Part shown: positions 4,381-60,861 of the stretch, in pieces
Layout of the letters: each line of letters begins with the position of its first letter
Numbering within the stretch: the stretch's first letter is position 1
Source of the DNA: a virus
Taxonomy: Duplodnaviria; Heunggongvirae; Uroviricota; Caudoviricetes
Virus record (IMG/VR): IMGVR_UViG_3300050190_000017
DNA length: 64,000 nucleotides
Strand: one strand, 5' to 3'
The notes under the pieces: model-generated
What the model was told of the DNA's origin: nothing
What the model saw: the letters and a program-made list of their open reading frames with translations, nothing else
The model's database searches: none
Made by a program: the position numbers and the translations under genes

Positions 4381-4381
4381 C

Positions 4382-4687
4382 ATGGAATTTACTAAGAAAG
4401 AACCCACGCCAGAAGAGGCATTATCCCGGTATCTCCAGCAGTATGGATACCCGTACACCTGTCGTATCTTCGGTAGGTGCAAGAATGAATTCAGGGCAGG
4501 CTTTCTAGCAGGGTATAGCTGTGCGTCTAAGCTTAGTTCCTCGGGTCTAGTAGAGCTGTACGCAGAATACGCAGACTCGCTTACAAAGAAACTAGAAGCA
4601 CCATTCGCTAACAGACAAGGATTTGAATCAGGTATCTTGTACGGTGCAATTCGCCACTACAAACTTACTATGGTTAGTAGACTCTAG
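4382..4687 (+). CDS. hypothetical protein (101 aa)
   Basis: ORF track frame 4364-4687. The ATG at 4382 directly follows the upstream stop. Confidence 0.5.
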   Translation: MEFTKKEPTPEEALSRYLQQYGYPYTCRIFGRCKNEFRAGFLAGYSCASKLSSSGLVELYAEYADSLTKKLEAPFANRQGFESGILYGAIRHYKLTMVSRL

Positions 4688-4695
4688 GAGTAGTA

Positions 4696-31359: not shown

Positions 31360-31587
31360 ATGAAGCGTTATCTCAAAACCAAACTCGCAATCTTGCTGTT
31401 AGCAACCCTCGTAACAGTGTACGCAATGTTTGCAGGTATCAGTATCGCTTCCATGCTCACCCAAAGTGGTGACGCCTACGTTCTGTTACCCGCATTCGTC
31501 ATGCTCTACGCAGCGGCTATGTTCATACTGTGGTACATAGTGGCTCGTAGTTTTCGCAAACTCAACAAAATTAAGGATTCAGAATGA
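31360..31587 (+). CDS. membrane protein (75 aa, 2 TM)
   Basis: ORF track; GGGAGGAAC SD. Confidence 0.55.
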   Translation: MKRYLKTKLAILLLATLVTVYAMFAGISIASMLTQSGDAYVLLPAFVMLYAAAMFILWYIVARSFRKLNKIKDSE

Positions 31588-32429
31588 ACAAGAAGATCAC
31601 CCTTTCCCTGCTCTCCCTCGCGTTCCTCGCAGCCTGTACCAAAGTTCCTGTTGGGTACGTTGGCGTAAAGGTCAACAAGTATGGTTCAGGTTCGGGCGTG
31701 CAGAACCAAGTGTTGCAGCCGGGTAACACGTTCCAAGGTTGGAACACGCAAGTCTACTTGTTCCCTACGTTCACTCAGAACTATACGTGGACGGCATCCC
31801 TCGATGAAGGCAAGGCCAAGAACGAGTCGATCGACTTCCAATCGCAAGAAGGGACTAACGTTAATGCTGACTTCGGTATCACCTACCACATTGCAGAAGC
31901 CAACGTCCCCACGATTTTCCAGAAGTACCGGCAGGGCATGGACGAGATCACTGACGTGTACCTGCGTAACATGGTACGTGATTCTTTAGTAGAAGTTGCG
32001 GGCTCTATGACGCTGGATCAGATCAGTAGCGACCGTGCAAAGTTCATGACTCAGGTTAATCAGAAGCTAATTGCAAAGGCTTCCACGGTGGGCATTACTG
32101 TAGAACAGCTATCCTCCATTGGTAGCTTCCGTTACCCGCCGCAGATTGTTGCTGCTATGAACTCCAAGATGGCAGCGATTCAGAAGGGGATCCAAATTGA
32201 GAATGAAGTAGCGCAGACCAAGGCAGAAGCAGCGAAGCGTGTTGTGAACTCACTTGCTGACGTTACGGTTGCTCAGAATGAGGCACAGGCAACGGAATTG
32301 CGAGGTGCAGCTTTGGCAAAGAATCCAGAAGTGCTGACCCAGATGTGGATTGAGCGTTGGAATGGTGTGCAACCTCAGTACGTAGGGAGCGGGAACTCCC
32401 CGATCCCAACATTCCAGGTGAACAGGTAA
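31584..32429 (+). CDS. SPFH/band-7 domain lipoprotein
   Basis: Lipoprotein signal with lipobox LAAC. GYVGVKVNKYG...QPGNTF matches the SPFH fold, followed by a long coiled region. Confidence 0.55.
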   Translation: MNKKITLSLLSLAFLAACTKVPVGYVGVKVNKYGSGSGVQNQVLQPGNTFQGWNTQVYLFPTFTQNYTWTASLDEGKAKNESIDFQSQEGTNVNADFGITYHIAEANVPTIFQKYRQGMDEITDVYLRNMVRDSLVEVAGSMTLDQISSDRAKFMTQVNQKLIAKASTVGITVEQLSSIGSFRYPPQIVAAMNSKMAAIQKGIQIENEVAQTKAEAAKRVVNSLADVTVAQNEAQATELRGAALAKNPEVLTQMWIERWNGVQPQYVGSGNSPIPTFQVNR

Positions 32430-34568: not shown

Positions 34569-34610
34569 AGGGCACGTATTCTTAGCGGAATACGTGCCCT
34601 CTTTTGCGTT
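34569..34610 (+). terminator. rho-independent terminator
   Basis: 13-bp stem AGGGCACGTATTC/GAATACGTGCCCT, loop TTAGCG, then CTTTTGCGTT. Confidence 0.75.
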
Positions 34611-34656
34611 ACGCCCGCAATTTCATTCTAAACATCGCTTCTTTAGGAACAATAGA

Positions 34657-36318
34657 ATGGACCAAACATTAATCACAGCCTCAGAGCTTCTGAACCTCCT
34701 CCAACCTCTTTTTGTTTTAATTGTTGACTACGTTAGCAACGGGCCGGAGAGCAAACCGGACAAGGAAACTGCCCAAGAACTAAAAAGCATTCCTAAAGCA
34801 ATCATCGCTAAGTGGGGAAAGCAACTTCCTTCCCTCCTTCCGTCCATCCAGGCAGCCCTTGCCGGCACGGGTAAAGCAGAACAGTTGGTACTCCTTGGTA
34901 CTGAGATCAAGGAGATGTTCGAGACGTATCGTGCGGAGAAGTCATTCACCTCTCAGGAGATCGACGTACTGAAAGCCCTCGGCCTGTACCTCCGTACCGA
35001 TAGTGAAGCCGCGCTCTCCAAGATTCAGAAGATGGCAGGTATAGTTCATAGTCCTTTCGTTAGCTCTCGGTTTGCTCCCAAACAAGGTCAACAGAAGAGT
35101 GACACGCTCCGCAAGCTAGTGTTCGAGATGGTCGGCCGTGACGACACCGCACTTACTATAGATGAAGCCAAACAGGTTAAGGAAACTCACCCAGAAGAGT
35201 ACGCACAGTACCAAGCATACCGCAAGGAGCACAACCAGGTGTGGAAGGATGCCGTAGTATCCTATGTGCGTAAATCCGGACATGACACAGTTCCCTACGA
35301 GGAGCTCTTGGCCTACCTACACGCCAATGGTATTGAGCACATGCTTCCTGTTGGATTCACAGGCGAGGTTGACGACCTGGGTAGGCTATACACCAACACT
35401 GGTAAGATGATCGACGGTGTCCCCTCGGCTATTATGTTCCCTACCATGATAATGAACAAGCAGTTCGGGAAAGAGGGTGGTAAGGATTTTGTGTTTCAGG
35501 CTATACGTAGCGATGGCGGCCCTGGTCCCTACTTCTACACTTCGGAGTACAAGAAGGAAGCAGCTAAGGCAAAGTTCCAGCACGTCGCTGACCTCGCACC
35601 CAAGATCTTGTCGATGCAGAAAGCCTGGTTCTCCAAGGTTAAACAATTCAAGATTACTGATGCTGAATGTGTAGCCGCCACCATCTTAGAGATCCTGTAT
35701 GAGTTTGCAGCCCGTGTTGGTACTCCAGGTGAAGCGACGTTCGGTGTATCCACCCTGCTGGTAAAACATATGGCTGTAGACCATGCTTCAGGTAACATCA
35801 CTATTCGCTACCTTGGTAAGGACTCCATCAAGACCGTGCATAAGTTGGTAGCGTCTGATCCTACACAGAAGTTTGTTATCAAAGCCTTACTCCAACTGTT
35901 AGCGGGCAAGCAGCCTAAGGACCGAGTGTTCACCGTGGACAAAAGCGCTCGTAAAGTCCCGGTTAATGCCAAGGACGCTAACGCTTACTTCAAAGAGCTA
36001 GGTGCCCCTGCAGGAACAACTGTGCACAAGCTTCGGACCCTGCGAGGTACTCATCTGTTCTCTGAGCTTATGGAGAAGGCTATGGAGAAGCCTCCCAAGG
36101 ACGAGCGTGCTGCACTCGCTATGCTAACGAAGATGGGCGAGCAGGTCGGTAAGTTGCTAAACCATATTAGAACAATGGCTAGCGGTGGAACTAAAGTCAC
36201 GGGCACAACAGCACTAGCCAACTACGTGGACCCAAGCATACAGATCATGTTCTTCCGGCAGTTAGGCTTTCGCATTCCTCGCTTCCTTGAAAAACACGAC
36301 ACAGAGGTGAAGGATTAA
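34657..36318 (+). CDS. type IB DNA topoisomerase-like protein with N-terminal extension
   Basis: ITIRYLGKDSIKTVHKL follows the F.F.GK....H pattern. KLRTLRGTH and ALANYVDPSI resemble the active-site tyrosine motif SKxNYLDPRI of TopIB. The ATG at 34657 has an AGGAAC SD; the track's upstream GTG lies in the terminator stem. Confidence 0.5.
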   Translation: MDQTLITASELLNLLQPLFVLIVDYVSNGPESKPDKETAQELKSIPKAIIAKWGKQLPSLLPSIQAALAGTGKAEQLVLLGTEIKEMFETYRAEKSFTSQEIDVLKALGLYLRTDSEAALSKIQKMAGIVHSPFVSSRFAPKQGQQKSDTLRKLVFEMVGRDDTALTIDEAKQVKETHPEEYAQYQAYRKEHNQVWKDAVVSYVRKSGHDTVPYEELLAYLHANGIEHMLPVGFTGEVDDLGRLYTNTGKMIDGVPSAIMFPTMIMNKQFGKEGGKDFVFQAIRSDGGPGPYFYTSEYKKEAAKAKFQHVADLAPKILSMQKAWFSKVKQFKITDAECVAATILEILYEFAARVGTPGEATFGVSTLLVKHMAVDHASGNITIRYLGKDSIKTVHKLVASDPTQKFVIKALLQLLAGKQPKDRVFTVDKSARKVPVNAKDANAYFKELGAPAGTTVHKLRTLRGTHLFSELMEKAMEKPPKDERAALAMLTKMGEQVGKLLNHIRTMASGGTKVTGTTALANYVDPSIQIMFFRQLGFRIPRFLEKHDTEVKD

Positions 36319-37352: not shown

Positions 37353-38284
37353 AACTAAACGCGGCGCATCGACTGTTAGCTTCGGAGGATTGGTGGGAAG
37401 CTCTTGATGCCGACCAGAAGAAGCAATACATCAAGGATCATCCAGGCTCCAAGTATGCTAAGGATTCCATAAAGGAAGACTCGAAAGAACCCGAGGCTAA
37501 GGATACACCTGAGCCCCGTAAGGCGTCTGCAGGTGTCCTAAGAACCCACGGCCCTAAGATAGCGAGGCTACTCCGAGATTCATTCCCACTGTTATCCGGA
37601 GCTACCGCAGCCCTAAAGCATCTTGCCACAGGGAAGAAGCTAACTGAGGACCATCGGGATGTTCTCATGGAGCTCGGGGATACAGTCCTGAAATCAGCAT
37701 TGAAGTTCGCAGTAGGTAAGGAACAGGCACACCTTATTCATACTGCTGGTCACGTAGGTGTTCACGCAGTGAAATACGCTACGGAACACTTCAAAAAGAA
37801 CAAAGAGAATTCCAATGGTAAGGACGACCTCGAAGTGTTCGTGGACTCCGTGGCCGAGGGTATAGAGAAAGCCGATGTACCTGATGAAGAGGTATCGACA
37901 CCACCTAAGAAGGGTGCCATTGCTCAGCACATTAAGTCTAAGGCCTCACACATAGCTAAGGTACTAGACCGGTCCTTCCCTAGGGTAAAGCAGGCCACCA
38001 CAGGACTTGTAGCACTGAGTGAGGGTACAGAGTTGAGTGCTGAGCAGAAGAAAGCAATCAAGGGCCTAGGGAAGATGGCATTAGGCATGAGTATAGCGGC
38101 ACTACCTGGTGGGTTTGCCGCACACCTTGTTGCTGGTGCTGGCAGCCTAGCTTTAACTAGCGCGCTCAACGCCATTCGTAAAAGGAAAGTTCCGGAGGGC
38201 AGCGTTCTCCGCCACTTTGTAGAATCCATAGGGCAAGGATTAGAGGATGCTGTAGTGAGCAAAGCTCTAAAGGAAGAAGTATGA
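37349..38284 (+). CDS. KLNAAxRLLA-tagged protein, tandem paralog of 36321
   Basis: MKLNAAHRLLASE N-terminus; long stretches align with 36321. Confidence 0.6.
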   Translation: MKLNAAHRLLASEDWWEALDADQKKQYIKDHPGSKYAKDSIKEDSKEPEAKDTPEPRKASAGVLRTHGPKIARLLRDSFPLLSGATAALKHLATGKKLTEDHRDVLMELGDTVLKSALKFAVGKEQAHLIHTAGHVGVHAVKYATEHFKKNKENSNGKDDLEVFVDSVAEGIEKADVPDEEVSTPPKKGAIAQHIKSKASHIAKVLDRSFPRVKQATTGLVALSEGTELSAEQKKAIKGLGKMALGMSIAALPGGFAAHLVAGAGSLALTSALNAIRKRKVPEGSVLRHFVESIGQGLEDAVVSKALKEEV

Positions 38285-38784
38285 TGAAACTAAACGCAGC
38301 ACACAGGCTACTAGCTAGTCAAATCTTCTACCGAGGCCTAACTCAAACCTGGTCGGATGAACACGCAAAGAACCAGCACATCATCTTCATTACTCCTGAT
38401 CGAGACTACGCCTTAGAGTATGCAAAGGATGAACAGCACGTACTAGAATTTCATGCTGACATAGGGCATAGCTTCGACTTTGGTTTCCGAACGCTACAAA
38501 CGGAAGTTCAGCTGAAGGATGTAACCGATCGGGTGAAGCGTGGCATACTCTCGCAATTCCAGGAGGGTCACATCACTAGAGAAAAGGGTATGGAGCTCAT
38601 GGACGAACTAGCAGAGGTAAAGGGTTCCGGTTATAAGCATGTGTGGGAGTGGTACATGCAACTACCTGAGCTAGTTAGGATCCTCAAGGCTGCTGGGTTT
38701 AACTCTGTAGAAGGCAAGGAAGGAGTGAACGACGATATTCCTACCTACGGAGTATTCAGTGTTCACCAACTTAAACGTGTATAA
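38281..38784 (+). CDS. KLNAAxRLLA-tagged hypothetical protein (167 aa)
   Basis: MMKLNAAHRLLASQ; a YRG follows the tag, but no complete ART triad was seen. Confidence 0.55.
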   Translation: MMKLNAAHRLLASQIFYRGLTQTWSDEHAKNQHIIFITPDRDYALEYAKDEQHVLEFHADIGHSFDFGFRTLQTEVQLKDVTDRVKRGILSQFQEGHITREKGMELMDELAEVKGSGYKHVWEWYMQLPELVRILKAAGFNSVEGKEGVNDDIPTYGVFSVHQLKRV

Positions 38785-39336: not shown

Positions 39337-40752
39337 ATGAAGATTAACGCAGCCTCCAGACTACTAGCTAGTCAAAAGTTAGCAACACACGATGGTCGCC
39401 TCTTACTCTTGGGCTTTGGTGCTGTAGGGCAGACGATGTTACCAATGCTCCTCCGCCACATAGATCTGAATCCCTCCAAGATAACTGTTTTGGATAAGGT
39501 AGAGCGCCCTGAATTCGCTCCCTACACAGGCATTCACTACGTAGTGCGTGAGATAGTAGAAGACAACATGGGCTCTACTCTTGAGTCCTTACTAGCTGAA
39601 GGTGATTACCTCGTCAACCTAAGCTTGAACATCGATGGAATAGCTATTGTAGAGTGGTGCCTATCCCATAACGTTATGTACATCGACACGTCCATTGAGC
39701 GTTGGGCTACCTCACCCGACGAGACAATACCCGATCTAGCAGAACGTACTTTGTACACAGAGCATCAAGAGATTAGGGAGATGGCTTCCAAGTACCCAGG
39801 TCATGCTACCTGTGTAGTAACGCACGGGGCTAACCCTGGGCTAGTATCGCATTTCACAAAAGCTGCATTACTCAAGATTGCTAAGGATACCGGATTATCT
39901 ACTGAGGTTCCACAGAACCAAATGGGTTGGGCAGCTCTAGCCGAGGCCACTGATACTAAGGTGATTCAAATAGCAGAACGCGATACACAGATACTGAAGG
40001 TTCCTAAGCGCGTACATGAATTCGTTAACACCTGGAGCTGCGAAGGCTTCTGGGCTGAGGGTAGAGCACCTGCTGAACTAGGTTGGGGGTCGCACGAACC
40101 GCAAGAGGTTGGTGGCTTAACTGTGCAGGGGAATTCAGCGTATCTCGACACTCCCGGAGTAGCCACCCTCGTGAAGTCCTGGGTGCCTCTTGGTGGTACG
40201 TATAACGGATTCCTAATCCAGCACTCAGAGGCAGTAACGATCAGTGAGTATCTATCCACTGATTCCTATAGACCTACAGTGTACTATGCGTATCAGCCGA
40301 CAGATGCAGCATTGGCCTCAATCCATGAGATGCGTGGACAAGAATTGTGGATGCACCGTAATACTAGGATTGCTAAGAACTCCATACTAAGTGGTATCGA
40401 TGAACTAGGGGTGTTGCTCCTAGGTCATGGTAAGAATGCGCTGTGGTATGGCTCTCAATTAGATATAGAGGAAGCTCGATCGTTAGTTCCTGGTCAGAAT
40501 GCAACTACTGTGCAGGTATGTGCCTCACTGCTAGGGGCTATAGTATGGACGTTAGAGAATCCGAGAATGGGTTATTGTGAGCCAGAAGACTTACCCTTCG
40601 ACTTTGTGCTGTCAATAGCTAAACCCTACCTTGGTCCTATGGTGGCTTACTATTCAGATTGGAGTCCCTTGGATAACAGAGGGCACCTGTACAAGAAGGA
40701 TTTCGATGAAGATAACGAATGGGCTTTCACAAACTTTTTAGTAGGGAAATAG
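39337..40752 (+). CDS. KLNAAxRLLA-tagged homospermidine synthase-like / saccharopine dehydrogenase-family NAD(P)-binding enzyme
   Basis: Tag MKINAASRLLASQ, then the Rossmann motif LLLLGFGAVGQ. Length of 471 aa and overall pattern fit bacterial HSS. Confidence 0.55.
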   Translation: MKINAASRLLASQKLATHDGRLLLLGFGAVGQTMLPMLLRHIDLNPSKITVLDKVERPEFAPYTGIHYVVREIVEDNMGSTLESLLAEGDYLVNLSLNIDGIAIVEWCLSHNVMYIDTSIERWATSPDETIPDLAERTLYTEHQEIREMASKYPGHATCVVTHGANPGLVSHFTKAALLKIAKDTGLSTEVPQNQMGWAALAEATDTKVIQIAERDTQILKVPKRVHEFVNTWSCEGFWAEGRAPAELGWGSHEPQEVGGLTVQGNSAYLDTPGVATLVKSWVPLGGTYNGFLIQHSEAVTISEYLSTDSYRPTVYYAYQPTDAALASIHEMRGQELWMHRNTRIAKNSILSGIDELGVLLLGHGKNALWYGSQLDIEEARSLVPGQNATTVQVCASLLGAIVWTLENPRMGYCEPEDLPFDFVLSIAKPYLGPMVAYYSDWSPLDNRGHLYKKDFDEDNEWAFTNFLVGK

Positions 40753-45424: not shown

Positions 45425-45763
45425 GTGGCTAACACTAGAGAGATTAATATGAAAGCTGCACACCGACTAGTAGCGTCCCTTATAGAGGAGCAAGCCATGT
45501 TGAGTACCCACCTGATTGAACTACTAGCGAACTATGGTATCGAAGCGGAGTCACCAGATGACGCAAATAATTCCCTGCTAGTGTACGAGGAAAGCCCCCG
45601 TATCGTCATGGCCTTGGCGTTAGCTCGATGGATCTCAGATGAACCTCGGCAGGTCAACGGTGGTATGTACTGTGCGGGCACTACAGTTCAATTGAAACAG
45701 AAGGGACAGACTATCCGCCTACTGACGACAGCGCCAGGAAGGTCTGTACTATGGCTAATATGA
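45425..45763 (+). CDS. partially tagged hypothetical protein (112 aa; MKAAHRLVASL starts at the second Met, 45449)
   Basis: ORF track; true start at 45425 or 45449. Confidence 0.5.
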   Translation: MANTREINMKAAHRLVASLIEEQAMLSTHLIELLANYGIEAESPDDANNSLLVYEESPRIVMALALARWISDEPRQVNGGMYCAGTTVQLKQKGQTIRLLTTAPGRSVLWLI

Positions 45764-46473
45764 AAGAGACAAAAGCAATGCACGCACCTAGGCACAGAAC
45801 AGGTGAGACTGCCCCAATAGCAGATGGGGAACTATCAATTGGCGATCCTGACATCTGGGGTAACGGCATTAACAACACGTTAGTTCAGCCATCTATAGGA
45901 GTATCAGGCGTCAAGCTGAACGCCGCACACAGGCTGTTAGCTGCAGCTGAACCCCTCCCTGAATGGGTTTCACATACTATACAGCAGTGGATAAGTGGCG
46001 GTTCTGGTAGATTCACCTCCGCGCAAATGCAGGATGCCCTAAAAGCTTTCCACGTCGTTAGAGAAAGCTACCGTAGTACACTACCGAAGGTAGTGTATCG
46101 AGGGTTGCTTATCCCTGAGACCGCGCTGACAAAGATCCTAAACGGCAAGCCGTTGAAAGTAGAGCCCGCTGTTCTTTCATCCTGGACCTCAGATCCTAAA
46201 GTTGCATTGAAGTACGCCAACGTCACCTGGGATACACCTTTAGAACAGATCGGAATTATATTAGCTATTCATACGCCACCGTCAGCTCTGTTCTATATAG
46301 ATAAAAAGTTCATACGTACTGTCCTGGATGATCCATTTTCCCACGATCAGAAAGAGGTAGTGGTTCAGGGGCCAGGTGTGTCCCACGTTAGCAGAGACAA
46401 CATACTAGCCGTAGTCTCAGAGACTAATACCCCTCTTAAGGTTTCAGAGTACCTGAAGGGAATTGAAAAATGA
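45751..46473 (+). CDS. Alt/C3-like mono-ADP-ribosyltransferase (R-S-E class) with internal KLNAAHRLLA tag
   Basis: VVYRGLL (Arg), LSSWTSD (STS-like) and DQKEVVVQGPG (QxE plus hydrophobic strand) in canonical order and spacing. The tag begins at about residue 56. Confidence 0.65.
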   Translation: MANMKETKAMHAPRHRTGETAPIADGELSIGDPDIWGNGINNTLVQPSIGVSGVKLNAAHRLLAAAEPLPEWVSHTIQQWISGGSGRFTSAQMQDALKAFHVVRESYRSTLPKVVYRGLLIPETALTKILNGKPLKVEPAVLSSWTSDPKVALKYANVTWDTPLEQIGIILAIHTPPSALFYIDKKFIRTVLDDPFSHDQKEVVVQGPGVSHVSRDNILAVVSETNTPLKVSEYLKGIEK

Positions 46474-46574
46474 ACAACACATTTGTCTACTTCGCACAGC
46501 CAACAGAAAACACATTAGTAGCTCCGAACCTAACGCCTATGCTTGCTCCAGGTGAAACGACATGCAATTAAATG
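46473..46574 (+). pseudogene. truncated duplicate of the 5' end of gene 47092 (33 codons), running into the start of 46562
   Basis: Nucleotides 46473-46560 are about 85% identical to 47092-47180. Both encode MNNTFVYFAQPTENTLVAPNLT(S/P)MLAPGET. Confidence 0.6.
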
Positions 46575-47095
46575 CAGCCTCTAGGCTCGTAGAGTCTATG
46601 CCTATTAGGATGCGAGAGAACTACACTCAACTAGAATTTGATCGAGACGTAGAGTTTCTTGAAAAACGATTGAAAACTAAGCCTGCTGTACCACTTGGCA
46701 CAAAAGAAGGTTTGTCCTTATACTACCTGAAGTTGACTTATTCTCGTGACTTTTTCTTAAAAGATAGAGATAGAATAATTGGAATATTGTCTACGACGGC
46801 CAAAGGCAACATGGTTATCAGTGTTTTTATCGAAGAAGAATACAGGGGACGACATTTAGGTCTTGTACTATATCTAGCAGCTATTCATGTTCTAGGTGAA
46901 CTTCAAAGTTCAAGCATTATAGGTATAATGGCAGTTAGAACCTGGAGATCCGTATCTAAGTACTATTCAGTGGAACTACTAGATCATCTTCAGGTACCTG
47001 TGGATTTCTCTTGGGGTACCGATACAATACCTATTGTAAAAGGTAAACCTATAAATAAACTTAGAGGGAATTTTTACTTTAAGGTGAAAGCATGA
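46562..47095 (+). CDS. KLNAAxRLLA-tagged GNAT-family acetyltransferase
   Basis: MQLNAASRLVES, then the GNAT motif-A-like VFIEEEYRGRHLGLVLYLAAIHVL. Confidence 0.55.
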   Translation: MQLNAASRLVESMPIRMRENYTQLEFDRDVEFLEKRLKTKPAVPLGTKEGLSLYYLKLTYSRDFFLKDRDRIIGILSTTAKGNMVISVFIEEEYRGRHLGLVLYLAAIHVLGELQSSSIIGIMAVRTWRSVSKYYSVELLDHLQVPVDFSWGTDTIPIVKGKPINKLRGNFYFKVKA

Positions 47096-48618
47096 ACAAT
47101 ACATTCGTCTATTTTGCACAGCCCACAGAGAATACATTAGTCGCACCAAACCTAACGTCTATGCTTGCTCCAGGTGAAACGATCACCAGCATAGTATTGA
47201 CTGCGGTAACACCGACTACTGCTCCACCGCTCACAGCAGTCTTGCAGTCAGGTGCTAATCCTGTAACGCAGATCCTGTTATCCGGTGGTATTGCTGGTAC
47301 TGCTTACGGCTTCCAGATTCTGGCTACTACTAATGCTCGGGTGCTCACAGCTCAGGTAGCAGTCACAGTTCAGGATGAATTATTTGTACCGTACGCCACA
47401 CAGAATCCGCAGGCGTTCACCGACCTGGTTGATGAAATCCAAGCAGGCATGGCAGCAATTGGTACTGCTATCTTTAGCTTCCCTGCTACTATTGACCCAC
47501 GTGGAGGCTTTGTAACCTGGGAACTCTTAGCCTCAGACGGCACAGTGTACGCAGCAGGTAACGCCTACAACTATTTGGTACAGTCGAACGGTTTGGCTAA
47601 CACAGTCCTAGCTAACGCAGTTATCACAGTGCCCTCTACAGTACCACCTAGCTTAGATAACCAACGGTATCAACTTCGATATACGTTAGAACTCCCGCAG
47701 GTACAGAACCTGCAAAATGATCCACTGCAAGGTCAGGTATCGCAGAATGCTTTCTTCTCCTACGAGAACATCCGTGTAGTAGGGTTGAATACGGTACCTT
47801 TGGGCACGCAGTCTACAGTTGAACTGCAAGGCAGCCCTGCTAACCTATCGATTGTACTAGATCAGCTGTACGATAACGTCACCGTCGAATTGTGGGCTGG
47901 CGGTGTACAGGTAGCAGCCCCGTCCCTTATTGGTAACTCAGAACGTACTGCTAATGGTTGGTACTACGCAGGGGTCATCGACACCCAGCAGTTGATGGTA
48001 TCCCTTGTCCCCTACACTGTGATCTGGAAGTATTGGTATTCGTCACAAGCCTCGCTCGTCTACCAGGAATCAGCAGACCTGTTCGTTATCAATGCATCTA
48101 TGATGACAGCTATTACTGATGTACGGTCGAAGATCAACAAGGCGAACACTACGCTGTATGGTACTCCTGACATGCTGTACCCTAACCAAACGATCATGAC
48201 TTGGTTGCGTCGGGGTGCGGATGCTTTCAACGGTGCGTACGGGGTATTCACCAACTTCAGCTTCACCAATGCCTTAGGGGTCATCCGTGAATACTGGTTG
48301 ATGCACGCTGAGATGTTTGCTCTGGAATCGCAGGTAACGGCAGAAGCAGAGAAGGCATTCCAGTTCCAGGGTGCTGCTATTACCTTGGACATTGATCGTA
48401 CAGCAGGGTTCGATGCTGCTATCTCTAAGATTCAGTCGAGGTTGGACAATGAGCTGAAGGCGTTGAAGCAGAACTTGGTAATGCGTGGGGTGATGGGGGG
48501 CGATGGCTCCACCGATCCGACTATGCTACAGCACGGCGCTATCGGTGCAGTGGGTATTACGATCTCTCCTGTTACCATGTGGGGTAGATACGGCAGAGGC
48601 TACGGTCAGCTATTCTGA
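47092..48618 (+). CDS. hypothetical protein (508 aa), possibly virion-associated
   Basis: ORF track. Its 5' end is duplicated upstream of the inserted GNAT gene. Confidence 0.6.
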   Translation: MNNTFVYFAQPTENTLVAPNLTSMLAPGETITSIVLTAVTPTTAPPLTAVLQSGANPVTQILLSGGIAGTAYGFQILATTNARVLTAQVAVTVQDELFVPYATQNPQAFTDLVDEIQAGMAAIGTAIFSFPATIDPRGGFVTWELLASDGTVYAAGNAYNYLVQSNGLANTVLANAVITVPSTVPPSLDNQRYQLRYTLELPQVQNLQNDPLQGQVSQNAFFSYENIRVVGLNTVPLGTQSTVELQGSPANLSIVLDQLYDNVTVELWAGGVQVAAPSLIGNSERTANGWYYAGVIDTQQLMVSLVPYTVIWKYWYSSQASLVYQESADLFVINASMMTAITDVRSKINKANTTLYGTPDMLYPNQTIMTWLRRGADAFNGAYGVFTNFSFTNALGVIREYWLMHAEMFALESQVTAEAEKAFQFQGAAITLDIDRTAGFDAAISKIQSRLDNELKALKQNLVMRGVMGGDGSTDPTMLQHGAIGAVGITISPVTMWGRYGRGYGQLF

Positions 48619-52635: not shown

Positions 52636-55600
52636 ATGGCCGAGTTGAGACCAACTACCAACCTAGTTGTCCCTGAGAGTTTGCAGCTGGATAAGCAGGC
52701 GCTACAGAGCAACTTCTTCTACATCTACCGCGCACTATACAGTGGCCCGGAAATCCTGTTCATGACCAAGTTGTGGGCATGCTCACTGCTCCCTTCTATT
52801 GGCAATGATAAGCGCCTCGGTAGTGTACGACAGGGTATTCGTAAGGCAACCAAGTTCGTAATGGACACCACGCCTGCTGGGTACCTGACCATCAAGAAGG
52901 TGATGGGTGCTGATCCGTACTTTCGAGTATCCGTTCCACTGTTCGCTTTCAATAAGAATAGCCAAGGACCCCTGAGTCAGTTGCTTGAACAAAATTTATT
53001 GGGCTATGCGTTTGCCAAGGAGATTCCTGAGTCAACTCCTGAGCATCATCAGAACATGACGGAGTTGCAGCAACGCTTGAAGGATGAAGGTGATCCTACT
53101 ATTCCAATGAGCGTAGAGATCCCTGCTTCCCGAGTTATTTCGAGCATTAGTGGTTTAGACGCTAGGGCTAAGGTTGCATTGCAAGCCTGTCTTCTAGGAA
53201 TTCGTGTTAAGGTTAAAGGTGGGTTGGCTGTTATTTACGCAGACTTTAAGATTTCCAAGGAAGAAGCACAGCAGCTGACCTCCACGCACTGGATTGAGTT
53301 GCGTGATATTGACCTTTACCCTATGCTGTTGCAGTGGGTAACGACGGGTTTCGGTTCAGAAGGATTGGCCCCCTTTGTAGCATTCCCTATCTCTAAGATC
53401 GCTGCTACTCTGCCTAAGTCTCATACGCAATATGCACGCATTAACAAAGACGGGATTTCTATTACCCCTAAGGGGCGCCCTGTCTATCTTCCTAAGGAAC
53501 TGAATCAAACTCTTCAGTACGAAGACCGCTATACCCAGGCGGGGACGCGCGCTGATGGCAGTTATGCTCTCGTAGATATTAACGAGGGCGCTTCTGCTAT
53601 GGAGGCTGGCTCAGAAGTTAAACAGAAGTTGCCGCCTAACATTCCAGTATTGATCGACTGGGTTAATAACAAGTACAGCTATACTAACACCTCAGGCTTT
53701 CTTGAGGTAGAAGACCTTACTCGGTATCAAGCAGCCGACGTCTCACACATAAGGGCGCTCCTACAAGAACGTATTGTCACGGACAAGAATATAGCACGTA
53801 TCGCTGCACTTGGTGTTCCTGCTAACGTGCATCCTGCATCCTTTAAGGTCCTTGCCTCAGACGTAGAGGGTTTTGCGAATCTACCACAGGCGGGCGTCGA
53901 AGACAACTTAGATCAGTGGTTCGCCTACTGGGCTAGCCGCTTTGAGAAAGATGAAGGCCATCCTGTTACATTTGCGGACATAAGCTCTGATCGTCTTGGA
54001 TATGGTCCTTTCCGCCCTATTGCTCGTTACTTTAAGACTATCAAGGGTGCGGTACTCTCCAACTTAGACGCAGTGTACGCTCGTTACTCGGTGTCCTACG
54101 TTATGGAGAACTTGGCATGGTTAATACTGGTGGTTGAGTACTCCTCTGATTTTGAGGTACTCAAAGCACAGGATAGAACCAATCGTAGAGCGGCTACAGA
54201 TCAGGGTGTAACCAAGGGCTGGGTACCCCCCTCAATTCCCCTGCTGTCACCTGTGGTAGGTATGCTGCCCCACCAGATCAAGGTTCGTAACCTACTCAAG
54301 GACAGCCCTGACTTTGCTATCCTACCAGTCCAGGCGGGCGGTGGCAAATCGGTCATCATCTTGACCGATGTACTGTATGAGATCAAAGCTAACCGTAGTC
54401 AACCTTATTTGATTTTGTGTCCAGGTCACTTAGTTGCCAACTATGTGAAGGAGATCGTGTTCTTCACTGGGGGTAAGTTGAATGTTATAGCTATCAATAG
54501 TTATGCATTCGTTCAGAATGGGTTACCTAGATTGAAGGCTATGCTGGAGAAGGCTCCCCGTAACACAGTAGTGGTTGCTGACTATGATGTGTTGAAGTGG
54601 AGACAACGTGCTCTGTGTTACGGTACTACGCCGACTACCATCTTCCCGGCTATCGATTTCTTGCGCCAGTTTGGATTTGGGTACGTAGCTCTCGACGAGG
54701 CGCACAAGGTTAAGAACGATACTGCACGTACGCGTGCGACTATGTCATTGATTACTGACATTCCAAAGAAGCGACTAGCTTCTGGTACTATGGCTCATGA
54801 CTCTCCGTCAGATCTGGCAATGCAGATTGCTACTATAGATCCAACGTTATTTGGTACTCGAGATGAGTTCAACTTACGATATGGTGCCGAGGTTCAGGGT
54901 AATCGAGTTATCGCTTGGAAACCAGGTGCGCAACAGGAGATCATGCGGAAGATCAAGAGTCGTATAGTAGTAGCGGGTGCTATGCGTAAAGAGTGGGCTG
55001 CACTTCTTCCGAAGAAGACTGAGTGGATTAAGGGTGTCAACCTAACGGACGCTCAGTACTCTGTCTACAATGATATTCTAGACGGTATTATTGACCGTAT
55101 TAAAGAGGATGCAAAGAAGAACAAAGCACTACAGAAGTTTGTGAATCCAGAGGCCGAAGGAACTGACGGAGAAGAAGGAGAGGATGAGGTAAAGGATGAG
55201 GACGCAGGTGAGGATATGGCGAACCTGCTGAAGCCCTATCTAGCCCGGCTTGAGCAGTTCATGATTGCTCCTGCCTCCGATATACTAGGCGATCGAGTAC
55301 TAAAGGGTGCTGATCGAGTTAGCCCGAAAGCTCAACTCATGGTAGACCGAGTTAAGCTGCATATAGACAAGGGCTACCCAGGTAAAGTTTTGGTGTTCAC
55401 TAACTATGTGGAATCTGCCGAGGAACTTTATCGGTTGGCAGGACCTGAACTACAGAAGATGGGTATTCTGTACAAGGCGGGTAACAAGGATGTGGACGGT
55501 GATCGTTTCGAGAAGGATGACCGTATAAAGTGGATGGTAGGTGTTGAGCAATCCATGAACGAAGGCCTTAACTTCCAGTTCGCGTCTCGACTCCTACGCG

Positions 55601-57213
55601 GGGAGAATCCCTGGAACCCCGGTACTCTGGAACAGGGTGACTCGCGTATCAATCGCCCTGAGTTGAAGAAGATTGAAGGCCGTGCAGAAATCTTCTATGA
55701 TTACATTCTGGCAAACCGTTCGATCGACATTACCAAGATGTCGAGATTGATTTCAAAGGTTATTGCTGTTGCCAAGTTTGAGAACACAGATAACCCTGAG
55801 TATGAGAGCATTCCTGACGTTCCGATTATCAAGATGAGTTTGGATAACATTCAGACTATGAATGATTGGGAAGAGAACCTAACAGAATACAACGAGGCAT
55901 TCGGTCAGTATAAGGGAGTCCGCAACGATGAGTATGAGGCATTTAAAGTAGCTTATAGGGCAGCTCATAACGGTGAAGATCCTAAGTTGACGCCACTGAC
56001 AGTAGCAGAGACTCCACCAGACGCCAAGCTTATGTCTAGGGTTCCCTACCCGCCGGGTCTAGACTTGTATGGTACTAAGGAGGCTGGTCTAGTGCGTCTT
56101 GATCAGTATCTGGGCAAGCCAGAGGAAGCTGATACAGGCAGGGACGAGGAGGAGGATGAACCCGAGGTAGAAGAGGGTGAAGAAACTCCCGAGCAGCTGC
56201 GATTGAAAGCCTTGTACCAGAGTATGAAGGGTAAGGCAGTCCACACTGAGTTCGGTGATGGTATTCTGCACAGCGTTGGTACTGGCAAGCGTGTCCCTGT
56301 TGACTTGTTCTCTGGCTTTACTGCTATGGTTCGTAAGAGCTCTGTATTCGTTATTACACGTACCGAGAGTTCTACTAAGGATATTCGTAATGAGCTGCTG
56401 AAGAAGATTGGGGATCTACCTATCGACACGCCCATTGATGTTCCTGCCAACATCTTTAAGCAGAGCAGTCGTGCTCTCAAGCTCGCTCAAGAGCGTAACA
56501 AGAAGGTCGTTATCAAGAAGGAACTGAAGAAGCATAAGGAGCTGGTAGAATCTCTCAATGCTCAACTGCAGTTTACTATCGTAAACGGCTTCCTGGGAAT
56601 TTCCTACTTCGTTAACGGAGAAGGTGACTCGGTGGCTAAGGCATTGCAGGCTATTGGTTTCCGGCCAGACCCGCTGTTCTACTGTGCTAAGATGCCGAAG
56701 GCTCTGCGGCTGAAACGTCAGTTGGATCTGTGGCAAGAGAAGGGTTTCCGTCCTGATCCAGCCATCTTGAAGTCAGGGGCTAGGGAGGGTTTTGCTCAAC
56801 TCTATAACCTACTTAAGGCTGAGAAGATCAAGAGCCATAAGGACGTGTATCAGTTGACTACCTCGGCGAAGTTGCAAAACTTCTACCGCATGGAGCATAA
56901 GCCGTCTAACGATTCGAAGATGTTCAAGCCGTATCCGCTTATCGAAGACGGTATAGCTTACATTGCCTTGCCGATCCAAGGTCAGACGGCTAGTAAAGCC
57001 GCTATCAAAGTGAAAGCACTCAATGTGGTGTGGCAAACCTCTGCACCAACGCTTTCGTTCTTTGGTTCACCTCAGCAGTTGGAGGCGAAGATCGCACAGA
57101 TTACGGAGGCTGGTATAACGGTATCCACTCTCATGGATCTTACCAAGGAGCTGAAGGGGCTGAAGAAGCTTTCCATCCGAGGCTCTGATAAGGATAAGGA
57201 TCTAGAAGTATAG
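52636..57213 (+). CDS. giant (1525 aa) SF2/SNF2-like helicase-domain protein
   Basis: Walker A QAGGGKSV, DEAH box YVALDEAHKVKN and motif-VI-like QGDSRINR in the central region. Long flanking regions lack recognisable motifs. GGAGTAGTTATAATG. Confidence 0.6.
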   Translation: MAELRPTTNLVVPESLQLDKQALQSNFFYIYRALYSGPEILFMTKLWACSLLPSIGNDKRLGSVRQGIRKATKFVMDTTPAGYLTIKKVMGADPYFRVSVPLFAFNKNSQGPLSQLLEQNLLGYAFAKEIPESTPEHHQNMTELQQRLKDEGDPTIPMSVEIPASRVISSISGLDARAKVALQACLLGIRVKVKGGLAVIYADFKISKEEAQQLTSTHWIELRDIDLYPMLLQWVTTGFGSEGLAPFVAFPISKIAATLPKSHTQYARINKDGISITPKGRPVYLPKELNQTLQYEDRYTQAGTRADGSYALVDINEGASAMEAGSEVKQKLPPNIPVLIDWVNNKYSYTNTSGFLEVEDLTRYQAADVSHIRALLQERIVTDKNIARIAALGVPANVHPASFKVLASDVEGFANLPQAGVEDNLDQWFAYWASRFEKDEGHPVTFADISSDRLGYGPFRPIARYFKTIKGAVLSNLDAVYARYSVSYVMENLAWLILVVEYSSDFEVLKAQDRTNRRAATDQGVTKGWVPPSIPLLSPVVGMLPHQIKVRNLLKDSPDFAILPVQAGGGKSVIILTDVLYEIKANRSQPYLILCPGHLVANYVKEIVFFTGGKLNVIAINSYAFVQNGLPRLKAMLEKAPRNTVVVADYDVLKWRQRALCYGTTPTTIFPAIDFLRQFGFGYVALDEAHKVKNDTARTRATMSLITDIPKKRLASGTMAHDSPSDLAMQIATIDPTLFGTRDEFNLRYGAEVQGNRVIAWKPGAQQEIMRKIKSRIVVAGAMRKEWAALLPKKTEWIKGVNLTDAQYSVYNDILDGIIDRIKEDAKKNKALQKFVNPEAEGTDGEEGEDEVKDEDAGEDMANLLKPYLARLEQFMIAPASDILGDRVLKGADRVSPKAQLMVDRVKLHIDKGYPGKVLVFTNYVESAEELYRLAGPELQKMGILYKAGNKDVDGDRFEKDDRIKWMVGVEQSMNEGLNFQFASRLLRGENPWNPGTLEQGDSRINRPELKKIEGRAEIFYDYILANRSIDITKMSRLISKVIAVAKFENTDNPEYESIPDVPIIKMSLDNIQTMNDWEENLTEYNEAFGQYKGVRNDEYEAFKVAYRAAHNGEDPKLTPLTVAETPPDAKLMSRVPYPPGLDLYGTKEAGLVRLDQYLGKPEEADTGRDEEEDEPEVEEGEETPEQLRLKALYQSMKGKAVHTEFGDGILHSVGTGKRVPVDLFSGFTAMVRKSSVFVITRTESSTKDIRNELLKKIGDLPIDTPIDVPANIFKQSSRALKLAQERNKKVVIKKELKKHKELVESLNAQLQFTIVNGFLGISYFVNGEGDSVAKALQAIGFRPDPLFYCAKMPKALRLKRQLDLWQEKGFRPDPAILKSGAREGFAQLYNLLKAEKIKSHKDVYQLTTSAKLQNFYRMEHKPSNDSKMFKPYPLIEDGIAYIALPIQGQTASKAAIKVKALNVVWQTSAPTLSFFGSPQQLEAKIAQITEAGITVSTLMDLTKELKGLKKLSIRGSDKDKDLEV

Positions 57214-58105: not shown

Positions 58106-58402
58106 ATGAGAATCCAATTGAATGCTGCAGCCCGTCTTGTCGAAGTTAGTGCAGCAGTTCCTAACAAGATAAAGAACGAAGTTATGCGGACGCTAACCTC
58201 GAAGGGATTCACCGTAGACCGCCAAGGGGACGATGCTTTTATAGTGCATGAACCTAAAGAAAAGGTTATTGAAACTCTAGAGGCTGCTGGTTGGGAGTAC
58301 GATAACGCCTACGCAGAGCTAACGCGGGATGAGGGAGAGTGGAGCCTGGCACTGAAGAGCTCTGCTTCAGCTACTAAGCTAGAATTTTTGTGGGAAGGCT
58401 AA
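58106..58402 (+). CDS. KLNAAxRLLA-tagged small protein (98 aa)
   Basis: MRIQLNAAARLVEVS; TAAGGAGTAGTAAATG. Confidence 0.55.
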   Translation: MRIQLNAAARLVEVSAAVPNKIKNEVMRTLTSKGFTVDRQGDDAFIVHEPKEKVIETLEAAGWEYDNAYAELTRDEGEWSLALKSSASATKLEFLWEG

Positions 58403-58405
58403 CCT

Positions 58406-59224
58406 ATGAGGATCCCAAAAGCATACGCGGAGGCATCCGCTAAACGAGAGGACGCAGGTGTCTATAAGAGGTTGAGTGCTAACACTAGTTTAGGTGATGC
58501 TCTCAATACCAAAGTAGTTGATAGCATCGGGCACACTGAGAAGGTGATGGATGCAGAGAAGGATCAGTCGCTCCTTACTCAGCTGGACTATGAGACGTGG
58601 CTACCGTTTGCGGCTAAAGTCTATAAAATAAGCCCGAATATTTCCGATTACATAATCGTCTCTACAGTAGTCTGTCCATCGGAGCTTCCTAATAGGAACG
58701 GTATTGCGTTTCCGACCTCGGAACTAGCGAGGTTCATGCCACCACCTACATCCCGTATGGCTTACAAAGCATGGGCCGGTTGCCCTGTACATCTTGAGCA
58801 CGACAACGAGGATCACGAGAAGGCCTACGGAGTTCTCCTCGATGCTAGCTTCCATAAAGTAAGTGGTTACGGGGATGGTAAGCTATGGAAGGTGATGGGA
58901 CTCTTAGCTATCGACAAGACTAAGTATCCTGACGTAGCACAGAAGGTACTAACCAAAGAGATCAACACCTACTCTATGGGGGCACTAGTCGATTACTTTA
59001 CTTGTGGGTACTGCGGAACAGAGTGTACTTCTAAGTATTGCTGTCAGCACATCTCTAGCATTAAGGATGTGAACTGGAAAACCCACAAGGACTGGAATGG
59101 TGACTCCCATTTAAGCTTTTTAAATGCCCATGGCATCAGCCCGATCGAGGTTTCTATAGTGAAGGACCCGGCCTGGGCGCAGGCTCTATCCGATGAGGTA
59201 CATGAGTTCGCTAGTTCTGAATAG
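58406..59224 (+). CDS. hypothetical protein (272 aa)
   Basis: ORF track. It precedes the head genes. Any role as a prohead protease is speculation only. Confidence 0.5.
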   Translation: MRIPKAYAEASAKREDAGVYKRLSANTSLGDALNTKVVDSIGHTEKVMDAEKDQSLLTQLDYETWLPFAAKVYKISPNISDYIIVSTVVCPSELPNRNGIAFPTSELARFMPPPTSRMAYKAWAGCPVHLEHDNEDHEKAYGVLLDASFHKVSGYGDGKLWKVMGLLAIDKTKYPDVAQKVLTKEINTYSMGALVDYFTCGYCGTECTSKYCCQHISSIKDVNWKTHKDWNGDSHLSFLNAHGISPIEVSIVKDPAWAQALSDEVHEFASSE

Positions 59225-59232
59225 GAGGAAGT

Positions 59233-60861
59233 ATGTCGATGCAATGCGCCTGCTATGTTTGCTCAGGAAGCCTAGGCGCCTCTAAGCGACTACAAGAGGC
59301 ACTAGGTACGGCGAAGAAGATCACGGCGCGTAACTTCGATAGCCCAGAGCAGGCTAATAAGTTTAGTATAGAGCTTAGTAAGCAGTTACGTGCTAGGGGT
59401 ATAGAGATTGACGACTGGAGGAAAGTAGGCAACCGTCATTGGTTTGGCCTGTTCCCGAAGGGCATTAATCTCAAAGCCCCGATCACCTCTGCTCTCTCAA
59501 AGTTAGGGTACGCGCCCTGGTTGTTCAATAAGAAGGTGTACACCCATAATAAGTTTGGGTGGCCTCTTCTGGTAACGGATACTGAGATTGTGCTGCTCGG
59601 TCAATCTGTACCACGCTGGGGTAAGATTCTGGCGGCTGTCAAATCTGCGATCCCTGGTAAACCTCAGTTCACTAGTAAGCAACCTCTAGGGTTTATTGAG
59701 TTTACGTTCACCACGGAGAACTCAGTACCGATCTCTAAGCTGCTCAAGGGATTAGGTTTTGTTAAAGTGGAAGAGGGTCTCCTGTCTTCTAAGGAAGACG
59801 ACCTAGAAGTTACGTACACTAAGACTACAGCACAGGTTAAGGGTAAGTTACAACAACCTGCATCTGAGCTACTCTTAGACGAAAAGAAATTCGACAATGA
59901 GCGTAAGGTACCGCAGCCTCCAGAAGCTCCTAAGGCTCCTCCAGTAGTTGTGGTCAAGCCGGAAGTACCCGTAGTTCGACCTGCGCCAGAAGCTCCTAGG
60001 CAACCGCAGGATATACTAACACAGCCCGATAAGATATTGCTGAAGAAGGACAACACCGAGGTCCCTCATATAGCAATCCCAATTAGGTTGGGTGACTTCT
60101 ATTCTAAGACTGGTGGCGTCGCAGGCTCTCAAGGTGGTTTGCTTTGGATGCGTAACCTGTGGAACTTCCTGAATGAGAATAAGTTCGGAGGCCAGATGAA
60201 GCCGCCTAACATTAGCTACATAAAGAACGTGGCAAGAATGCGTACTCGTGGCTACTGGCGGGCTTCTACTAGGGAGCTTAAGATCGCACCCAAGTTGTTC
60301 AATGCCCCACTTCCGGTATTCGTGGAAATCTTCCTCCATGAGTGTTGCCACCAAGCTGTGTCTGAGATTGATCGTGTAGTTGATAACACGGAGCAGGGAC
60401 ACGGGCATCACTGGAAGAACTGGATGCGTAAAGTTGGGTTGAACCCTGCTAGGTATGACCACAACAACGCAGACATCTATCTCTCAGAGGAAGAGCAGGT
60501 TAAAGTTAAGGAACAACGGGAGAAAGCCGAGGAGACTAAGAAAGAGTTGGCGTTAACTCCGGAGTGGGATCTTGCTCCAGGGCGTGTAGTTCGCATTGCT
60601 TTGGAACGAGGCTCTAAGGTAGTGAATGGGGTCATTGCGTATAAGCAAACATCTAAGTACGCAGTCATCGTTGATCCTAACAGCAATCAATGGTGGAACG
60701 TTCCCCCTCAGCTTATCTACAAAGCTGATCCTAACGCCGACAACTCACAGTACTCTAGTGATGTGTGGCAGAGTGCTATTAGGCAAGTACAGTTTCACTT
60801 CCAGTATAAGAAAGAAGTACGACAGATTAAGAAGAGTCGTCGCTTCACTATTGGTTATTAA
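59233..60861 (+). CDS. SprT-like zinc-metalloprotease domain protein with Pro-rich linker
   Basis: HECCHQAV (HExxH) followed by GHGHHWKNWM, as in SprT/WLM. PPEAPKAPPVVVVKPEVP linker. Confidence 0.55.
   Translation: MSMQCACYVCSGSLGASKRLQEALGTAKKITARNFDSPEQANKFSIELSKQLRARGIEIDDWRKVGNRHWFGLFPKGINLKAPITSALSKLGYAPWLFNKKVYTHNKFGWPLLVTDTEIVLLGQSVPRWGKILAAVKSAIPGKPQFTSKQPLGFIEFTFTTENSVPISKLLKGLGFVKVEEGLLSSKEDDLEVTYTKTTAQVKGKLQQPASELLLDEKKFDNERKVPQPPEAPKAPPVVVVKPEVPVVRPAPEAPRQPQDILTQPDKILLKKDNTEVPHIAIPIRLGDFYSKTGGVAGSQGGLLWMRNLWNFLNENKFGGQMKPPNISYIKNVARMRTRGYWRASTRELKIAPKLFNAPLPVFVEIFLHECCHQAVSEIDRVVDNTEQGHGHHWKNWMRKVGLNPARYDHNNADIYLSEEEQVKVKEQREKAEETKKELALTPEWDLAPGRVVRIALERGSKVVNGVIAYKQTSKYAVIVDPNSNQWWNVPPQLIYKADPNADNSQYSSDVWQSAIRQVQFHFQYKKEVRQIKKSRRFTIGY

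Follow-up and report, generated by a model that had tools for sequence, protein, structure and literature searches.

The locus considered here raises two questions: what is the enzyme encoded by a phage gene that direct database searches leave without a name, and why does its product carry in its interior a short peptide that other proteins of the same phage carry at their N-terminus? The gene, an open reading frame (ORF) at 45751–46473, lies on the + strand of a 64,000-nucleotide stretch of Caudoviricetes DNA (IMG/VR record IMGVR_UViG_3300050190_000017), referred to below as the window. Its 240-residue product consists of a leader, the peptide in question (the tag) and a catalytic domain. The gene is a previously unannotated ADP-ribosyltransferase (ART) of a rare R-S-E subfamily, the homologues of which are recorded as hypothetical proteins. 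The whole explanation favoured here, to which a probability of about 0.6 is given, is that a tagged ART, linked to the head-tail connector gene, is placed inside the head of the phage and injected. The assignment as an ART is secure; the delivery mechanism is put forward as a testable hypothesis.

The translation contains, in canonical order, the three catalytic motifs to which a preliminary description of this DNA had drawn attention. The arginine lies in VVYRGLL (residues 113–119, including Y116-R117-G118), the serine in LSSWTSD (residues 142–148; S144 at 46180–46182) and the glutamate in DQKEVVVQGPG (residues 199–209; Q200 at 46348–46350 and E202 at 46354–46356). The equivalent of the STS motif has Trp, not Thr, as its middle residue (S144-W145-T146). 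Used directly as a query, the protein gave no ART hit in Pfam at E ≤ 1 and no Pfam domain anywhere, residues 1–67 included, nothing in PHROGs at E ≤ 0.1, and nothing among PDB sequences with phmmer at E ≤ 10. Megablast of the locus against phage genomes returned no match, and tblastn against phage genomes only weak matches (E about 1e-3) in Pseudomonas putida jumbo phages. A word-indexed search of 5.8 billion proteins matched only P0001, an identical protein named 'hypothetical protein' in a JGI metagenome record, and P0002, a homologue with 54% identity that also has the leader and an internal tag.

An exhaustive hidden Markov model (HMM) search was more productive, and gave 26 hits among 1.84 billion representative proteins, which marks the subfamily as rare. 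The hits were trimmed to a family alignment of 27 domains, 18–55% identical to the window protein. In this alignment R117, S144, A152 and E202 are strictly invariant, and W80, G118 and W145 are conserved at 90% or more. An invariant triad across homologues this divergent is the pattern of an active site under selection. Q200 is conserved in the jumbo-phage subfamily and kept in the seven closest homologues, and more remote members have E-x-E or other residues at this position. A profile search with the closer alignment found no relatives among viral contigs and metagenome contigs.

Fold prediction, which the preliminary description had named as a check, was carried out with AlphaFold. With the family alignment, a confident model was obtained (predicted local distance difference test score, pLDDT, 93.1; predicted template modelling score, pTM, 0.86), in which the R, STS and [QE]xE motifs are on the canonical strands; an alignment of two sequences only gave a pLDDT of 39.8 and an unusable model. 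From the N-terminus, helices precede the YRG strand and one helix separates it from the SWT strand; another helix, a pair of strands and an ARTT-type loop then lead to strand 5, which starts at E202. Strand 61–69 of the model corresponds to residues 114–122 and carries R117, strand 89–93 to residues 142–146 (SWT), followed by helix 149–156 in protein numbering, and strand 149–153 to residues 202–206, beginning at E202. This order of elements, as modelled, has the topology that is canonical for R-S-E ARTs, with helices at the N-terminus and a core formed by a split beta-sheet. The check came out on the side of the ART reading, and it is the match of topology that would place R117, S144 and E202 together around the NAD+ pocket.

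In Foldseek comparisons of the model with the PDB, the Vis toxin was the top match (E 8e-4), and the best structural matches were Vis, Tre1, SpvB, iota-like toxins, HopU1 and C3. Matches in BFVD, a collection of predicted viral structures, included phage Alt proteins and annotated phage ARTs, together with proteins named 'minor capsid protein' and 'portal' to which an ART domain is joined. When the family profile was run against PDB sequences, the ART of SpvB was the top hit; its E value of 0.49 is not significant, and R117 aligns with the SpvB motif VVYRGL.

The window protein itself falls below threshold for PF03496, PF07357 (DRAT) and PF01129 (ART). Its homologue P0016 passes DRAT (33 bits against a cut-off of 25) and P0042 passes PF01129 (28 bits against 22.3). 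Five other, more distant family members give hits of 17–22 bits to PF03496 (ADPrib_exo_Tox, comprising Alt, C3, iota and VIP2), below its gathering threshold of 23.4 bits. At the level of sequence, the Pfam link of the window protein to ARTs is transitive only, through its homologues, but it is consistent. A coincidence of R, S and E motifs, or an ORF that is not a gene, might be proposed on the grounds that Pfam, PHROGs and PDB sequences yield no direct match. The 26 HMM homologues with their invariant triad, a confident model that matches ARTs only, and purifying selection on the reading frame refute this, and its probability is negligible. It is very probable that the protein has an ART fold with a catalytically competent site.

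Distant homologues are found in the head-morphogenesis modules of other phages, one of them named 'minor head protein' in phage PaV-LD. P0016, a GC-rich protein of 1009 residues, probably from an actinobacterial phage, contains three tandem copies of the ART domain separated by linkers of the type 'QHPR.PAG...GGEF', and is a multi-ART polyvalent protein.

The preliminary description had called the protein 'Alt/C3-like'. This holds for the clade and the order of the motifs only; the protein does not score as a member of the Pfam family of Alt and C3, and the nearest solved fold is that of Vis, not of either of these. Like the window protein, T4 Alt is a phage-encoded ART of the R-S-E clade whose gene belongs to the virion or late gene set, and it has a short terminal peptide that is linked to incorporation into the prohead and processing by a protease (PMC9026906). 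Alt is a protein of 682 residues that scores 124 bits on PF03496, whereas the window protein has 240 residues and no match to this family. An hhalign comparison of the family profile with T4 Alt aligned the YRG and YRS regions with a probability of only 10.9%. Unlike in Alt, the tag of the window protein is internal, behind a leader of 54 residues, and its packaging is something that we infer.

The Vis toxin of Vibrio splendidus (PDB 4XZJ and 4Y1W) is only 12–14% identical in sequence to the window protein, and is a bacterial toxin, deposited as an NAD+–arginine ART, that lacks the tag, the leader and the context of phage head genes. The C3 exoenzymes (C3bot, C3stau) are single-domain ARTs of about 200 residues with N-terminal helices before the YRG strand, and have the same order of motifs, an STS-type motif followed by Q-x-E and a hydrophobic strand. 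They differ in that there is no significant sequence match, in that S-W-T replaces the STS motif in the window protein, and in that C3 enzymes are secreted toxins acting on eukaryotic Rho. The phage ARTs fused to MuF, portal or polyvalent proteins (Iyer et al. 2022, PMC9503650) offer another parallel: in them, too, an ART is attached to an N-terminal module that is conserved and associated with the head, and the C-terminal effector varies. Here, unlike in those fusions, the N-terminal module is the 54-residue leader with the tag, and Pfam detects no MuF (PF04233) or portal domain in the protein.

The motif Q-K-E departs from the E-x-E of the T4 Alt class, which has arginine acceptors. Arginine-specific transfer goes with the presence of the first Glu in E-x-E; among enzymes with Q-x-E, C3 modifies Asn, and pierisin and Scabin modify guanine. 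The acceptor is therefore more likely to be a non-arginine residue or a nucleic-acid base, and arginine specificity of the Alt type, directed at the alpha subunit of RNA polymerase, is doubtful. Judged by the motif, the sequence argues against Alt-like arginine modification of RNA polymerase as the default expectation, and RNA polymerase could be named as a target by analogy with Alt only. Q-x-E may instead reveal a new host target.

The same motif, and the substrates of C3, pierisin and Scabin, could suggest that the fold is active mainly as an NAD+ glycohydrolase, or as a modifier of DNA, RNA or small molecules, and not as an enzyme of the Alt type. Such an activity would be compatible with packaging. 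It is considered unlikely, given that the best structural matches, Vis, Tre1, SpvB, iota-like toxins, HopU1 and C3, are protein-targeting toxins, and that a pure NAD+ glycohydrolase would oppose the phage's own NAD+ salvage genes and NAD+-dependent ligase.

The reading frame is open for 240 codons and, as the preliminary description had stated, begins within the previous gene, which ends at 45763, so that the two overlap by 13 nt. The tag was also correctly placed inside the protein behind a leader, with a small correction: the leader is 54 residues long, not 55, and the tag occupies residues 55–67, not about 56–68. The core KLNAAHRLLA is residues 55–64 (45913–45942), and AAE extends it to residue 67. 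There is no ATG, GTG or TTG codon from M10 to the tag, which means that the tag is internal in the primary translation product. Compared with a related metagenomic contig, L009, the leader shows 12 synonymous and 9 non-synonymous codon differences, and residues 26–53 are identical. The synonymous changes indicate that the leader is translated and that its frame is under purifying selection. It is conserved as a protein in P0002, P0006, P0008, P0012, P0020, P0021, phiRSL1 ORF117 and BCSR5 QRE00257. The possibility that the tag is the true start and the leader untranslated was ruled out by the absence of start codons between M10 and the tag, by the purifying selection and by the conservation in homologues.

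Two features identify the phage from which the window derives. The connector protein is 52–59% identical to its counterparts in BcepSaruman, BcepSauron and BCSR5 (Burkholderia), phiRSL1 (Ralstonia) and Motura (Achromobacter). In addition, genes for an NMNAT-NUDIX fusion, NAMPT, topoisomerase IB, a NUDIX hydrolase, homospermidine synthase, the connector, an SNF2-type helicase and the head maturation protease follow one another in the same order as in phiRSL1. Together these indicate a phiRSL1-like jumbo myophage. A relative with 75–82% identity was found in soil metagenomes.

The tag, [M]-K/Q-L-N-A-A-x-R-L-[LV]-A (KLNAAHRLLAAAE), occurs 13 times in the window, always on the + strand, against an expectation of 0.17 in residue-shuffled ORFs and 0.99 in nucleotide shuffles. 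In 12 of the 13 cases it falls among an ORF's seven N-terminal residues, the ART being the sole exception. The first bases of the tag cores (NAA or KAA) are at 36339, 37358, 38293, 39346, 40765, 41398, 43722, 45161, 45452, 45919, 46571, 50569 and 58121. All are thus confined to 36.3–58.4 kb, a region that opens shortly after the topoisomerase IB gene and closes shortly ahead of the head maturation protease gene. A scan of the window detected no copy in the first 36 kb, which is devoted to replication and nucleotide metabolism, and none on the − strand. The codons of the tag vary synonymously (AAC/AAT for Asn; GCA/GCG/GCT/GCC for Ala; CGA/AGG/AGA/CGC/CGT for Arg; all six Leu codons), which indicates selection on the peptide and not on the DNA. 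A DNA or RNA repeat, such as a promoter or a recombination box, was ruled out as the primary constraint, as the codons vary while the peptide is kept. The tag peptide is probably helical.

The tagged proteins include a NUDIX hydrolase, a GNAT-like protein and a protein that weakly matches the kinase family of the T7 0.7 type. A homospermidine synthase homologue (39337–40752), with saccharopine dehydrogenase N- and C-terminal domains, is also tagged (MKINAASRLLASQ); the biochemically characterized homospermidine synthase of phiRSL1 starts with MDKVGNIQ and has no tag. A tagged protein of 167 residues (38281–38784) has IFYRGLTQTWSDE immediately after its tag and is superficially ART-like. It was rejected as a second ART copy, since hhalign against the ART profile matches the tag only and there is no Pfam hit. 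Related tags (M-x-I-[QE]-A-A-x-R-L) are frequent in Motura and BCSR5 and are present in phiRSL1 and BcepSaruman. Neither a description of the tag nor virion proteomics of phiRSL1-like phages was found in the searchable literature, which did not cover the 2010 phiRSL1 paper.

Comparison with relatives bears on the unusual position of the tag in the ART. In contigs L009 and L010 the position of the ART is taken by a complete gene of 74 codons (product P0008), comprising the same leader, the tag and 10 further residues, and the connector gene follows directly. Nucleotide homology between the window and L009 stops within the tag codons, at 45927, and picks up again at 47089. The window has about 1160 nt in addition, made up of three parts: what remains of the tag together with the ART domain, a remnant, 91 nt long, of a connector gene's 5' end, and the tagged gene for the GNAT-like protein; L009 has neither the ART domain nor the GNAT-like gene. 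In relatives, the leader makes up a small protein of its own, whose gene lies immediately 5' of the connector gene. In L011, L015 and L017 it is the N-terminus of the ART itself that bears the tag, and the ART gene comes directly downstream of the connector gene, the identity of which is confirmed in L011 and L015 and assumed in L017. L011 also encodes a small protein, a leader with a C-terminal tag, upstream of its connector gene. P0009 is a counterpart of the P0002 leader that has leader and tag only.

In L013, the ART (P0006) and a GNAT that reaches the Pfam threshold (Acetyltransf_1) are both fused to leader-plus-tag sequences upstream of the connector gene. Other domains are found behind leader and tag in phiRSL1 ORF117, P0020 and Motura gp165, and BcepSaruman gp094 and BCSR5 QRE00257 end in the tag and have no cargo. 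The internal tag is not peculiar to the ART; it marks the joint between the connector-linked leader-tag protein and a tag-ART cassette. We consider it likely that it arose by fusion of a gene for a leader with a C-terminal tag and a gene for an ART with an N-terminal tag. The slot beside the connector gene is best explained as a site for exchangeable cargo.

Several further observations concern these loci. The two leader-plus-tag genes of L013, at 2629–3351 and 4001–4819, are consecutive and carry the GNAT and the ART, respectively; P0006 contains two tag-like segments. The pairing of an ART and a GNAT beside the connector gene recurs in two lineages with differing states of fusion. The window protein was rejected as an orthologue of phiRSL1 ORF117, as only the leader and tag region match. 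H-Y-type motifs are seen in relatives, GYHAT in ORF117 (L001 11270–11980) and LYHGT in a 174-residue protein of Motura (L003 5190–5714), and the best Pfam hits of these two proteins, PARP (E 0.2) and the rifampin ART Arr-ms (E 0.18), are non-significant. A 236-residue phiRSL1 protein, the length of ORF117, is a weak fold match of the ART model in BFVD (E 6.8e-3). The same cargo slots may thus be filled in relatives by ARTs of another clade.

The position of the gene beside the connector gene, and its fusion to a conserved small protein of the locus, could also be taken to mean that the ART fold is catalytically dead and serves as a structural or binding part of the head or neck. This is very improbable. 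The strict invariance of R117, S144 and E202 at 18–55% identity, with G118, W145 and A152 also conserved, argues against it, as does the absence of the domain from the close relatives L009 and P0009, which indicates that it is dispensable for virion structure.

The explanation favoured here is that the protein is a late product of three modules, the connector-linked leader (residues 1–54), the tag (55–67) and the complete ART domain (68–240). The leader is the body of a small protein whose gene, in this phage clade, always directly precedes that of the connector. The tag, alone or with the leader, would direct the protein into the prohead in the manner of the T4 capsid-targeting sequence (CTS). 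A cut made behind the tag, perhaps following AAE67, by the head maturation protease (encoded at 58406–59224) may free the enzyme, which would then enter the next host with the DNA and may there catalyse NAD+-dependent mono-ADP-ribosylation of a host macromolecule at the start of infection. Taken separately, packaging and injection are put at roughly even odds by analogy with T4. The T4 CTS is an N-terminal peptide of 10 residues that is sufficient for packaging and is cut off after Glu, and the suggestion has been made that evolution has used it to bring varied proteins into heads (PMC9026906). It is a recognized pattern that myophage ARTs have genes lying next to those of the head or are fused to head proteins, and such ARTs are probably packaged (PMC9503650); the proposal made here for an ART gene that adjoins the connector locus fits this generalization.

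The tag resembles the CTS in that it is a peptide of about 10 residues common to unrelated proteins, normally at the extreme N-terminus, in a phage that also encodes a prohead protease. It differs in that its sequence is unrelated, it is present on at least 13 proteins within 22 kb, enzymes included, and it coincides with recombination breakpoints between relatives; a capsid-targeting role is putative here. Placement at the extreme N-terminus applies to 12 of the 13 tagged proteins, while the tag of the ART starts at residue 55 and that of some relatives is C-terminal. In T4 and phiKZ, the prohead protease site follows a Glu at the end of the peptide. In about 10 of the 13 cases a Glu follows the tag's RL at a distance of 2–16 residues, AAE67 being that of the ART, and there is no uniform Glu cleavage site.

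Several points weigh against delivery in the head. The homospermidine synthase homologue and the proteins encoded from 38281 and 43710 have no nearby Glu after the tag, and no cleavage motif is shared by all tagged proteins. The tag is also found on the homospermidine synthase homologue and the NUDIX hydrolase, which are not obvious injected effectors, and the phiRSL1 homospermidine synthase does without it. Its C-terminal or internal position in relatives is not what a classical N-terminal propeptide would show. For phiRSL1, the records in GenBank and RefSeq have no virion annotation at the locus, where the tagged proteins are listed only as hypothetical. To these may be added the empty direct searches of Pfam, PHROGs and PDB sequences with the protein, described above.

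Some of these points would be expected of an active ART that stays in the producing cell and is at no time packaged. Its substrates might be proteins or nucleic acids, of host or phage, or it might be an anti-defence enzyme. The tag would then have another role, perhaps as a helix on which a chaperone, a protease or an assembly factor docks, as an oligomerization element or as a localization signal; its presence on metabolic-type enzymes and its flexible position (N-terminal, internal or C-terminal) agree with this, and T4 ModA and ModB are non-packaged ARTs (PMC9503650). Against it, all 13 tags lie near the connector and head protease genes and none in the upstream 36 kb, and every relative for which enough sequence is available has the ART gene in tight linkage with the connector gene, on one side or the other. 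In L013, L018 and L009, moreover, the leader gene's stop codon overlaps or abuts the start codon of the connector gene. An enzyme confined to the producing cell is somewhat unlikely on balance.

A wider reading, more tentative than delivery of the ART itself, is that the tag, in the general form [M]-x-[LI]-[NQE]-A-A-x-R-L-[LV]-A, could be a portable peptide for head loading and processing in phiRSL1-like jumbo phages and at the same time a recombination joint at which cargo is swapped on and off the connector-linked leader. More than 10 enzymes might then be injected, the ART being one cartridge, with Q-x-E pointing to a target other than that of Alt. The cargo would include, besides the ART, the GNAT-like protein, the NUDIX hydrolase, the kinase-like protein, the homospermidine synthase homologue and others.

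Phage ARTs carried in the capsid, of which T4 Alt is an example, belong to the earliest enzymes to work on the host, and are recognized as common, though mostly uncharacterized. ARTs encoded near head genes of phages are already known. What is new is the combination of a short, clade-wide tag on many proteins, a connector-linked leader and signs that cargo is exchanged at the tag, of which no description was found in the searchable literature. These features point to a system of cargo loading general to phiRSL1-like jumbo phages, a group with cultured members from Ralstonia, Burkholderia and Achromobacter. Should this be confirmed, foreign proteins could be loaded into phage heads for delivery by means of the tag, as has been done with the T4 CTS.

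The features of the locus and of related genes in the window are collected in Table 1.

Table 1. Positions in the window of the ART gene, its parts and catalytic residues, and genes discussed with it
Feature	Position	Strand	Basis
Whole ORF: leader, tag and ART domain, 240 residues plus stop	45751–46473	+	Open reading frame
Shine-Dalgarno-like AGGAAGG, 8 nt 5' of the ATG	45736–45742	+	Read from the sequence
Leader, residues 1–54, with conserved block ELSIGDPDIWGNGINNTLVQPSIGVSG	45751–45912	+	Conservation at the protein level
Internal tag KLNAAHRLLA(AAE), residues 55–67	45913–45951	+	Peptide common to 12 other + strand ORFs
ART catalytic domain, residues 68–240	45952–46470	+	
R117 (cga), the Arg of YRG, on strand 1 of the domain	46099–46101	+	Invariant in 27 domains; model strand
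S143-S144-W145-T146, equivalent of the STS motif	46177–46188	+	S144 invariant, W145 nearly so
Q200-K201-E202, catalytic Glu at strand start	46348–46356	+	E202 invariant; model strand
Remnant (91 nt) of the connector-gene 5' end; ATG overlaps the ART stop codon	46470–46560	+	Sequence repeat
Tagged cargo gene, GNAT-like, 177 residues, begins MQLNAASRLVES	46562–47095	+	Weak Pfam Acetyltransf_1; phrog_1249
Head-tail connector/adaptor gene, conserved anchor of the locus	47092–48618	+	phrog_17327, E 7e-83; Pfam Gp77
Head maturation protease, candidate processing enzyme for tagged proteins	58406–59224	+	phrog_18299, E 5.9e-90; syntenic with phiRSL1 ORF132
NAD+-dependent DNA ligase	20416–22356		
NMNAT-NUDIX fusion	25071–26177		
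NAMPT	26249–27649		

The remnant downstream of the ART gene is 88% identical to 47092–47182, the start of the connector gene of the window, and 76% identical to the start of that of L009. The direct repeat of 91 nt around the GNAT-like gene suggests that this gene arrived by recombination with a related phage. The match of its product to Acetyltransf_1 (E 0.0065) is below the cut-off. The remnant encodes MNNTFVYFAQPTENTLVAPNLTPMLAPGE and, with 47092–47182, brackets the tagged gene.

NMNAT-NUDIX and NAMPT, noted in the preliminary description as an NAD+ salvage pair, are indeed present in the window and form a complete pair, accompanied by an NAD+ consumer, the ligase; they are syntenic with phiRSL1 ORF104 and ORF106. 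That the salvage genes feed the substrate of the ART is one possible reading; they could equally serve the NAD+-dependent ligase. NAD+ salvage could alternatively counter host defences that deplete NAD+.

A tagged ORF of 98 codons (58106–58402) lies directly 5' of the head maturation protease gene, and the next gene after the protease (59233–60861) encodes a SprT-like metalloprotease domain. A type IB topoisomerase (34594–36318), an SPFH/Band 7 protein (31584–32429) and a 1525-residue SNF2-type helicase (52636–57213) are encoded among or beside the tagged and structural genes, as in phiRSL1, and are unusual near head genes.

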